Shown here one piece after another: positions 37,301 to 39,492 of a DNA stretch of 64,000 nucleotides (the first letter of the stretch is position 1; every line of letters starts with the position of its first letter). The notes under the pieces are model-generated. The model was not told the DNA's origin, did not search any database, and saw only the letters and a list, made by a program, of their open reading frames with translations. Source of the DNA: Candidatus Bathyarchaeia archaeon (GTDB lineage Archaea > Thermoproteota > Bathyarchaeia > 40CM-2-53-6). The stretch covers positions 1,088,001 through 1,152,000 of the forward strand of contig JBEKFP010000001.1 in assembly GCA_050013255.1 (NCBI GenBank), in the 5' to 3' direction. The position numbers and the translations under genes were made by a program.

Positions 37301-37408
37301 TGGTGGACCGGGCGGGATTTGAACCCGCGACCTCCCGCATGCCAAGCGGACGATGTGGTCGCATCGTGTTGATTCATCGATGCTCATACCAGGCTGATCT
37401 ACCGGCCC
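37301..37408 (-). tRNA. tRNA-Ala(GGC) with one 30-nt intron at 22/23 (37355-37384); CCA encoded
   Basis: Spliced cloverleaf GGGCCGG TA GATC AGCCTGGTAT GATC G TCCGC TT GGC AT GCGGG AGGTC GCGGG TTCAAAT CCCGC CCGGTCC A CCA; G3-U70; BHB-like GGTA/TGA/GCATCG..CGATGC/GACC/ACA. Confidence 0.93.
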
Positions 37409-37719
37409 AACGGTTCGAGTGCTTTCCACCTCCGCCTAAAAACCTTCGTACTACTTTCGTGCACTTCTCCGCCTTTTCAAGCTACAACAGAGGTTTACCA
37501 TTGAAGCTCAATCTTGGCGAACCCGTGTGACATCAATCATTGTCCTGTTACGGAAACTGATTACGAACGGTCTTGTGACGCGAACATATGCCGAAGGCGC
37601 ACATTGATTCGAGCTGCCCGACTGCGCGCTGGCTCGTGTACCAAAGTTCCAAGGCTTTTGGAGTAGGGCGCTTGAGATCAGTCCAGCACTGGATGAAATG
37701 TGTTGCAATTAGAAGAAGG

Positions 37720-37764
37720 CTTAAGTTGTTGAGCGGAAAGCTGTCTTGCTCGGTGCCGGGGAAC
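37720..37764 (+). promoter_or_regulatory. tRNA-Phe TATA box (CTTAAGT) and 5' leader
   Basis: Purine-rich BRE-like run, then TTAAG at 37721-37725; standard spacing puts the start near 37750. Confidence 0.55.
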
Positions 37765-37902
37765 GCCGAGGTAGGACAGATTCCCTCGAAAGCTCAGCCT
37801 GGGAGAGCACCCGAACAAATCGTGGTGAAGCTGAAGACCGGGTTGACTACGCTACATAAAGCGTAGGCCAAATCGCGGATTCAAATCCCGCCCTCGGCAC
37901 CA
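37765..37902 (+). tRNA. tRNA-Phe(GAA) with three introns: 8/9 (37773-37790), 30/31 (37814-37829), 46/47 (37846-37872)
   Basis: Spliced 77-nt GCCGAGG TA GCTC AGCCTGGGA GAGC A CCCGG CT GAA GA CCGGG TTGTC GCGGA TTCAAAT CCCGC CCTCGGC A CCA; central helices CGAG/CTCG, CACC/GGTG and a relaxed GGGT/GCCA. Confidence 0.9.
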
Positions 37903-38037
37903 CTTTCCTTTCGCCCTTAATTGAGCAATAAGTAAGACGAATGATGGCTATTCGGCCGACTCTACCAAGCCTCAGGGCCTTCAAAAGGCACATTAGCTTC
38001 CTATTTGCAATAGTCGGACCACTTTAGGTGCAGGCAA

Positions 38038-39492
38038 ATGTCTACTATGCGATCTAGAATACTCATTTCGCTTCTTTTGCTTGCAGCACTGTGGATTCCA
38101 TTGTTGTCTATCCCAAATGGGAGCAGTCAATCTGCAGCAGTAACAACGACGATGACCGTTAATCAGCCCCCCTCAGGTCAGTGTTCCGAAACTTCCCTTG
38201 CTTTCTCAGCACAAGCGAGGAAGGAAATCACAGGGACATATGGGTCGGATGCGCCAATCAATTTCTACATATTGTCCCAGAAGGATTTTGACGCCATTCA
38301 AAACCCAAATTGCAATCTTCCGACAACCGCAACGCCTCTTTTCATTGATGTGAACTCAGTCGGCCACGGCAATCCGTATCGCTCCCTGCCCTTTCCAGCC
38401 AACGGAACTTATTATTTCGTTTTCGTCTACTTCAACAAGAGCGTATCTGCACTTGTAAAGGGTTATGCATCTATTGAATTGAGCTTCCCACCTTCCATAA
38501 CTCTAGTTACAACCGTGACCTCATCCACAACTAGCTCCTCGAGTCCAATCGTAACGACGACTCAAAGCACTATTCCAATCGTAACGACGACTCAAAGCAC
38601 TATTCCAATCGTAACGACGACTCAAAGCACCGCAGTTGCCTCCACAACACTATCCTTCGGAACTTTCGGAGTAATCGGGTTAATTGTTGCGATTGCTCTG
38701 ATCGTTTCAGTGATGGTTTTCATGAGACGGGGGAAGTCTCAGACAGCACAGAAAAATGTACTGAACCAGCAGACCGTAAAGAGAGAGATAAGGTTCGAAG
38801 GCCCGCAGCCGGCAATTATCCCAGCAGGGCAAAGCATCTCCACCGGGTATGATGAACTGGACACCGTATTAGCTGGGGGGTTGCCTGTTGGCTACGCGAT
38901 TCTGGTAATGTCTCCACCGTGCGATGAAAGGGACCTACTCTTCACGAAAATCATCGAGTCGAACTTGTCGATCGGAAGCTCGGTATTCTTCCTGTCCCGT
39001 GATCTGAGTAGAACACAGGATTTCGCGAGTCGATACCGGAAGGATTTTTACGTGTTCAGCCCTCAGGCAGACAAGATTACTACCGACAGCGGAAATGTCT
39101 TCAAGATTGCCGGCGTTCAGAACCTCAACGACCTCAACATAACTTTCACGAAAGCCATGGAGACATTGCCCAAAGCTATTTCAAATAAGATTATCATAAT
39201 TGACCTTCTATCCGAAATATTGCTCGAGCACAAATCACTGACAACTCGAAAATGGTTGGACGACTTTATCGGCAAACGCAAGTCAGAAGGTTTCACAGTC
39301 CTAGCAATACTAAACCCGCTGATATCATCCAAACAAGAAAGTCAAACGATAATTGACCTGTTCGACGGCATCATCGAGATCTACGAGAAGGAACTTAGAG
39401 AAAGGGCGCGCCGTTTCCTTATAGTAAAGAAAATGTACGGAAAGAAATACATTGAGTCTGAGCTGATGTTGGACAAAGACAAACTCTTCTAA
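38038..39492 (+). CDS. Single-pass membrane protein: signal peptide, extracellular beta domain, S/T linker, TM helix, cytoplasmic degenerate KaiC/RAD55-like domain
   Basis: ISTGYDELDTVLAGGLP, P-loop replaced by SPPCDERD, IIIIDLLS, LFDGIIEI, RFLIVKKMYG. Confidence 0.85.
   Translation: MSTMRSRILISLLLLAALWIPLLSIPNGSSQSAAVTTTMTVNQPPSGQCSETSLAFSAQARKEITGTYGSDAPINFYILSQKDFDAIQNPNCNLPTTATPLFIDVNSVGHGNPYRSLPFPANGTYYFVFVYFNKSVSALVKGYASIELSFPPSITLVTTVTSSTTSSSSPIVTTTQSTIPIVTTTQSTIPIVTTTQSTAVASTTLSFGTFGVIGLIVAIALIVSVMVFMRRGKSQTAQKNVLNQQTVKREIRFEGPQPAIIPAGQSISTGYDELDTVLAGGLPVGYAILVMSPPCDERDLLFTKIIESNLSIGSSVFFLSRDLSRTQDFASRYRKDFYVFSPQADKITTDSGNVFKIAGVQNLNDLNITFTKAMETLPKAISNKIIIIDLLSEILLEHKSLTTRKWLDDFIGKRKSEGFTVLAILNPLISSKQESQTIIDLFDGIIEIYEKELRERARRFLIVKKMYGKKYIESELMLDKDKLF
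38544..38630 (+). repeat. Perfect 30-bp in-frame tandem repeat, 2.9 copies (PIVTTTQSTI)
   Basis: Unit tccaatcgtaacgacgactcaaagcactat repeated. Confidence 0.97.

Follow-up and report, generated by a model that had tools for sequence, protein, structure and literature searches.

The window analysed here is a 64,000-nt stretch of a Bathyarchaeia MAG, whose congeners include 'archaeon RBG_16_50_20' (L040 = G007). At 37765-37902 (+) it carries a tRNA-Phe(GAA) gene, missed by both ARAGORN and Rfam, with three BHB introns at positions 8/9, 30/31 and 46/47. Exon 1 (nt 1-8; 37765-37772) is followed by an 18-nt intron at 8/9 (37773-37790), exon 2 (nt 9-30; 37791-37813), a 16-nt BHB intron at 30/31 (37814-37829), exon 3 (nt 31-46, including the anticodon GAA; 37830-37845), a 27-nt intron at 46/47 (37846-37872) and exon 4 (37873-37902), which spans nt 47-76 and includes the T arm, the 3′ acceptor strand and an encoded CCA; all lie on the + strand. 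Excision of the three inserts leaves a 77-nt cloverleaf with encoded CCA that matches intron-less orthologues. Each insert is precisely missing from some relatives: the 8/9 insert is cleanly present or absent, the 30/31 insert is missing in relatives such as L024, and the 46/47 insert, a relaxed BHB with three of four central pairs and a 6-bp inner helix, is missing in relatives from family f2. Oligo-U is a termination signal in archaea, and the pyrimidine-rich trailer (37903-37911, +) is hence the likely terminator.

The spliced cloverleaf has a single mismatch, A53.C61, common to congeners. It lies in the T arm (37875-37891), where it replaces the near-universal G53-C61; about 16 genomes of genus g1 share it (L001-L016, L019), and three congeners keep G53 (G001, G006 and G020). 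The mismatch may be tolerated or edited. Divergent from tRNA-Phe is a tRNA-Ala(GGC) gene with a D-arm insert (37304-37408, −), and the Ala/Phe pair is syntenic in many relatives.

The 8/9 insert has the sequence hallmarks of an archaeal BHB tRNA intron. It would fold into a canonical hBHBh′ motif in which nt 1-2 provide the outer helix h (G1-C11 and C2-G10), nt 3-6 pair with intron positions 37785-37788 in the central helix (CGAG/CUCG, 4/4 Watson-Crick) and nt 7-8 fall in a bulge; the two bulges are 3 nt each and h′ is 3 bp. Because nt 1-2 and nt 3-6 are all taken up by the outer and central helices, the motif is incompatible with a closed acceptor stem. The host encodes two EndA subunits (two PF01974 genes) and RNase P RNA; the protein-only RNase P HARP was not found in its genome.

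A predicted BRE and TATA-like box (37711-37727, +), a motif also kept in relatives, precede the gene; the TATA-like box begins at 37720, behind a purine-rich BRE, and lies 45 nt upstream of G1. The median TATA-to-G1 distance is 34 nt in host tRNA genes without a 5′-proximal intron. From this spacing, transcription is predicted to begin at about 37750-37752, which would put a leader in the transcript, as the initial annotation had proposed from the TATA box. The predicted leader holds a spare acceptor strand (37752-37761, +), made up of GGU and a duplicate of tRNA nt 1-7 that has G in place of A5. The strand is conserved in relatives and is separated from G1 by a 3-nt spacer (37762-37764, +); the spacer is 0-6 nt in Phe relatives, and longer and D-arm-complementary in other isotypes. 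The strand, GGTGCCGGGG, can form 10 contiguous pairs, one of them G.U (G37759.U37894), with CCTCGGCACC at 37892-37901 (+), which comprises nt 66-72 of the 3′ acceptor strand followed by A73, C74 and C75. This 10-pair match, the core observation of the initial annotation, was confirmed in the sequence and in both the MFE and the centroid fold (z = −3.74). The duplex has an energy of −22.1 kcal/mol, equalled by 1 of 5,000 random 40-nt genomic windows. The earlier statement that the other three tRNA genes of the window have no such leader also held up, their duplexes reaching only −11.9 (Ala-GGC), −7.5 (Gly-GCC) and −7.7 kcal/mol (Arg-UCU).

In folding models, which leave out tertiary structure and proteins, the leader had a large effect on the 8/9 motif. 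Without the leader, the partition-function probability of the central helix at 37 °C was 7e-5; with it, the value rose to 0.91-0.98, which corresponds to about 5.9 kcal/mol, and the effect held with or without the other two introns. The modelled probability of the native acceptor stem was about 1e-7 when the leader was present. Shuffled G-rich leaders gave partial help (median probability 0.03-0.2). For 22 homologous 8/9 precursors, the median probability was 0.32 with the leader as compared with 2e-6 without, and the gain exceeded 10-fold in 21 of the 22. Leaders of a fixed 40 nt understate the Phe effect (0.036, against 0.98 with the predicted start), since they include untranscribed promoter DNA; with such leaders, Asn and Gly showed no clear model gain. 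Among 3/4-intron genes, which are described below, 10 of 12 were correctly parsed and folded (L388 and L389 were left out), and three of these 10 showed no clear gain from the leader.

Custom scans located 44 tRNA genes in the host genome. Nearly all bear introns, and in many there are three to five; the scans did not pick up tRNA-His and a few isoacceptors, genes that may be more heavily disrupted. We ranked 43 of the genes, leaving out Gln-UUG, by the strongest pairing that the 40 nt preceding each gene can form with its own 3′ end. The top seven were Glu-CUC (intron at 10/11), Phe (8/9), Trp (10/11), Asn (8/9), Leu-CAG (8/9), Cys (8/9) and Gly-CCC (3/4), and in each case the leader duplicates the acceptor strand of its own gene. 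An intron at 3/4 to 10/11 was associated with a strong leader duplex (Mann-Whitney P = 4.5e-5, 43 genes), and none of the remaining 35 genes came within 2.9 kcal/mol of the top seven. The eighth gene with a 5′-proximal intron, Leu-GAG, has no acceptor copy and a duplex of −9.0 kcal/mol; its leader pairs with the D-loop instead, which in the model extends the outer helix and lifts the probability of the splice motif from 3e-7 to 0.11. All eight genes have promoter-to-G1 distances of 45-63 nt, as compared with the median of 34 nt. Read from sequence, the spacers of Glu, Gly, Leu-CAG and Asn are also D-arm-complementary. The tRNA-Gly(CCC) gene (G000:C2:304710, −) has its 3/4 intron outside Thermoproteales, and combines a spare acceptor strand with a D-arm-pairing spacer. 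A mirror case is provided by tRNA-Asp (G000:C1:292741-292845, −), where a 68/69 intron interrupts the 3′ acceptor strand and the trailer pairs with the freed 5′ strand of the T-stem (12 pairs, −21.2 kcal/mol).

The initial annotation expected the leader in relatives that keep the 8/9 intron, and we found it in every one examined, although counts across genomes overstate independence since kin share ancestry. For tRNA-Phe, a leader module was present in 24/24 genomes with the 8/9 intron (19 of the acceptor type, four of the D-loop type and one with both), and in metagenomes at 21/21 true tRNA-Phe 8/9 loci. For tRNA-Glu with a 10/11 intron, the copy was present in 34/34 intron-bearing genes from nine genera (30 of them at −14 kcal/mol or better), as compared with 2/76 intron-less genes; the two exceptions come from a genus whose congeners all have the intron. 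Three intron-less Glu genes of genus g21, with a flank homologous to that of an intron-bearing gene, show a decaying copy. The intron-bearing Glu genes also tend to have a G at −1 (31/34, against 6/76 intron-less genes), which extends the outer helix, and GG at −2/−1 (25/34 against 5/76), extending helix h. A phylum-wide search for 3/4 introns returned 12 real genes from five families of other classes; the copy, which corresponds to the spliced, unsplit nt 1-7, was present in 12/12. One of these genes adjoins a Pyrobaculum PaREP1 gene, which indicates that the published Thermoproteales 3/4 intron (PMC4090602) obeys the same rule.

The module was also seen further afield. A tRNA-Met gene from another order (L066) has a leader module as well, and in a Micrarchaeota genome, from a different phylum, tRNA-Met (L039:5743-5794, −) combines a spare strand of 6 nt at −21 with an 8/9 intron. 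In a hot-spring metagenome archaeon (L101), the leader of a tRNA-Phe gene with an 8/9 intron carries a copy that makes 6 pairs. The second, D-loop-complementary leader type occurs in L018, L020, L043, L051, L115 and L122 and at G000:C1:1244030; in L043 a G-to-C change moves the bulge with pairing kept. Judged by its sequence and distribution, the leader is a real, conserved and general feature.

The converse relationship is less strict: co-occurrence with the intron extends to all intron-bearing genes, but about half of the intron-less Phe genes (28/48) also keep the module. The 8/9 intron is polymorphic within g1, g2, g3 and g9, and repeated loss or regain of the intron may explain part of this retention. 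In 12 intron-less Phe genes of genus g2 (L068-L079), the 7-mer copy is 98% conserved as compared with 38% for the flank. This conservation, together with retention in 28/48 genes, suggests that something besides the 8/9 intron may maintain the copy. In a post hoc model, the g2 leader raised the probability of the 46/47 motif in 10/10 g2 genes that started below 0.6, and the probability was higher in 12/12; in g16 and g25 the leader did not raise formation of this motif. On these models, the g2 leader may have a second use, helping the anticodon stem to open for the 46/47 intron.

On the basis of sequence and folding models, we consider it likely that the leader serves as a surrogate acceptor strand in cis, leaving nt 1-6 available to the BHB and holding on to the 8-nt exon 1 until ligation. 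Transcription would start at the leader, as the promoter spacing implies, and the leader would pair with nt 66-75, so that in the computed folds the real nt 1-6 build the outer and central helices of the 8/9 BHB. EndA would then cut both bulges; such cleavage of both BHB bulges is known chemistry. Exon 1, which would otherwise be held by 2 bp (−0.7 kcal/mol for the outer helix alone, against −22.1 for the leader duplex), would stay tethered through the leader duplex until ligated. More speculatively, the real strand would displace the spare one after splicing, and RNase P would then remove the leader. D-loop-pairing leaders, in the lineages that have them, would extend the helix and tether the exon to the same effect, and both leader types and the Asp trailer are compatible with a tether role. 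The initial annotation had claimed that the leader holds the 3′ strand while nt 1-6 form the BHB, and had called it a switch. The folding models, the co-occurrence within the genome and the independent Glu and 3/4 sets favour the first part; nothing points to regulation, and in the models the leader would act as a constitutive folding aid.

Release of the leader poses a problem for a clamp of this kind, since the surrogate form of the spliced RNA is modelled as 7.2 kcal/mol more stable than the native cloverleaf. A possible, speculative answer is that RNase P first cleaves at the foot of the surrogate stem and so removes the GGU clamp; strand exchange and a second cut at G1 would follow. Such a cut would solve release, because with the GGU part trimmed the spliced surrogate and native forms are equal in the model (−31.8 and −32.0). 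The GGU:ACC extension is lacking in many intron-bearing relatives, many of whose copies have 7-8 pairs and would not need two-step release.

We considered whether the copy might be a functionless scar, the orphaned original 5′ end left by a duplication or mobile element that inserted the intron. Several features fit such an origin. The copy follows the TATA box at a distance of 30-35 nt, the usual place of G1 (32-34 nt), so that a fragment occupies the original position next to the promoter. In leaderless Phe genes GGT or GTGT often immediately precedes G1, which suggests that the GGU extension may be inherited. Together these make origin by duplication of the 5′ end likely. The 3/4 genes copy the unsplit nt 1-7, many intron-less Phe genes retain the copy, and 5′ tRNA fragments from intron gain have been described (Sugahara 2012, PMC3293823). 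However, the copy is conserved over families and classes despite saturated flanks, and decays in Glu after intron loss. Its substitutions preserve pairing: internal changes in acceptor-type copies are G.U- or Watson-Crick-compatible (Phe A5G and C2U, Glu C5U, Gly C5U), and at two wobble sites (Met L066 A6-U67 and Ala L388/L389 A3-U70) the copy is a better match to the 3′ strand than is the real 5′ strand. The sole recurrent pairing-breaking change, G4C, gives D-loop complementarity, and D-loop-type leaders would do the same job without being copies of nt 1-7. Nor did we find an integrase adjoining tRNA-Phe, whose neighbours are DUF123, TrmB, a KaiC-like ATPase and a nitrilase. A mobile-element attachment site was rejected, the fragment lying 3 nt from the gene with no integrase nearby. 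We regard a neutral scar as unlikely; the idea may explain the origin of the copy rather than its maintenance, and the sequences suggest that a duplication of the gene's 5′ end probably gave rise to the copy, which selection now maintains.

It is also rather improbable that the leader is chiefly a timer of end maturation, covering the ACC end and acceptor stem and thereby blocking or decoying RNase P and tRNase Z until the introns are out. The pairing of the focal leader with A73, C74 and C75 and the near-absence of the native acceptor stem in the leader-containing models would suit such a role, as would recognition of the acceptor/T half by both RNase P and tRNase Z (PMC3978253), and a timer could account for retention in intron-less Phe genes that have other introns. 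Against this, 35 multi-intron or intron-free tRNA genes of the host do without such a leader, the ACC-pairing extension is missing from many intron-bearing genes, and the block would outlast splicing unless a further step removed it. A delay of RNase P until splicing, as suggested in the initial annotation, is plausible as an accompanying effect.

A regulated RNA switch, in which temperature, ions or a factor toggles the leader and thereby controls tRNA-Phe output, is very unlikely. Two mutually exclusive folds do exist, but the surrogate state dominates the model at 15, 37 and 55 °C (0.92-1.0), with no temperature switch between 15 and 55 °C; the element occurs on unrelated isotypes, strictly following intron position; and we saw no conserved ligand-binding part and no Rfam match for the leader/tRNA-Phe locus. 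That the upstream copy is the true exon 1, with the second copy part of a larger intron, is scarcely credible: the focal upstream 7-mer pairs fully with nt 66-72, yet no U8 follows it, relatives' upstream copies carry mismatches (C4, A7), the repeat spacing of 7-10 nt cannot accommodate a BHB, and the second copy shows no variation and agrees with intron-less genes. We likewise discarded an intron of 7-10 nt hidden between the copies, for want of a self-complementary central helix.

Thermoproteales 3/4 introns have been known for about twenty years, and Marck and Grosjean in 2003 and Sugahara in 2008 reportedly described non-canonical BHB introns in archaeal tRNA genes, the Thermoproteales 3/4 intron included. 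These introns present a problem, in that the closed acceptor stem bars the splice motif and a cut exon 1 of 3-10 nt should fall off; a spare leader strand would answer both by a simple sequence rule. In the part of a review of such introns consulted here (PMC4090602), which covers the 3/4 case, non-canonical introns are protein-spliced BHB introns at transplantable positions with several per gene, as are all three of tRNA-Phe; neither 8/9 nor 10/11 figures in its list of positions. Keyword searches of the literature, reviews and recent surveys returned no description of a leader that replaces the acceptor strand, although Marck and Grosjean (2003) and Sugahara (2008) may mention the 3/4 case. 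In Asgard tRNA sets, as in the host, most genes have several non-canonical introns (PMC11291895; bioRxiv 10.64898/2026.10.13.758758); the word 'leader' is absent from these two papers, which pool acceptor-stem and junction introns as 'other'.

The closest parallels are split tRNAs (Nanoarchaeum equitans, Caldivirga) and permuted tRNAs (Thermofilum pendens, Cyanidioschyzon), in which flanking sequences likewise pair, hold the exons, permit a BHB and are then discarded (PMC3218864, PMC4033280, PMC3978253). In those systems, however, the flanks pair with each other, belong to the BHB and are cut off by EndA. The tRNA-Phe leader belongs to a single transcript in normal order; lying outside the BHB, it pairs with the 3′ acceptor strand of the mature tRNA, and both strand exchange and 5′-end processing would be needed to shed it. 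Split tRNAs have separately encoded and transcribed halves, whereas tRNA-Phe is one contiguous gene with one promoter; its leader pairs with nt 66-75 rather than with a trailer to form an h′ removed by EndA, and the 3′ half does not precede the 5′ half, as it would in a permuted gene. A 5′ tRNA fragment left by mobile-element intron gain is known beside Caldiarchaeum subterraneum tRNA-Thr, where it lies 1.8 kb away across a recombinase-coding element and has no proposed function (PMC3293823). The tRNA-Phe copy, by contrast, lies 3 nt away, is predicted to be co-transcribed, is conserved and has no integrase nearby. We conclude that the introns belong to a known kind, and that the leader, though similar in action to the helices flanking split and permuted tRNAs, lacks the features that define them.

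More broadly, we give roughly even weight to the idea that archaeal tRNA introns that invade the ends of the molecule generally come with flanking stand-in strands, whether this is a second acceptor strand, a clamp on the D-loop or a trailer substituting for the T-stem strand. Such strands would leave the splice motif free to form and tether a terminal exon of 3-10 nt from cutting to ligation. Strand exchange would then dislodge them, perhaps with two RNase P cuts, and a gene that retained its leader after losing the intron would be open to acquiring such introns again. If true, retained leaders would amount to a rule for where tRNA introns can land. Transfer RNA leaders, usually regarded as disposable, would gain a structural role, and the predicted order of processing is splicing first and the 5′-end cut last, perhaps in two steps. 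As Pyrobaculum carries the spare strand, the rule is open to direct tests in a cultured organism. A flank-based signal could also find terminal-intron tRNA genes missed by annotators, as happened here with ARAGORN and Rfam.

Directly 3′ of tRNA-Phe, 38038-39492 (+) encodes a protein that is membrane-anchored, rich in Thr/Ser and fused to a KaiC-like ATPase domain. Elsewhere in the host genome, isolated 3′ tRNA fragments consisting of a T arm and acceptor strand (G000:C1:1306696, C3:126867, C3:134075, C3:137325 and C3:281371) are likely attachment-site relics of integrated elements.
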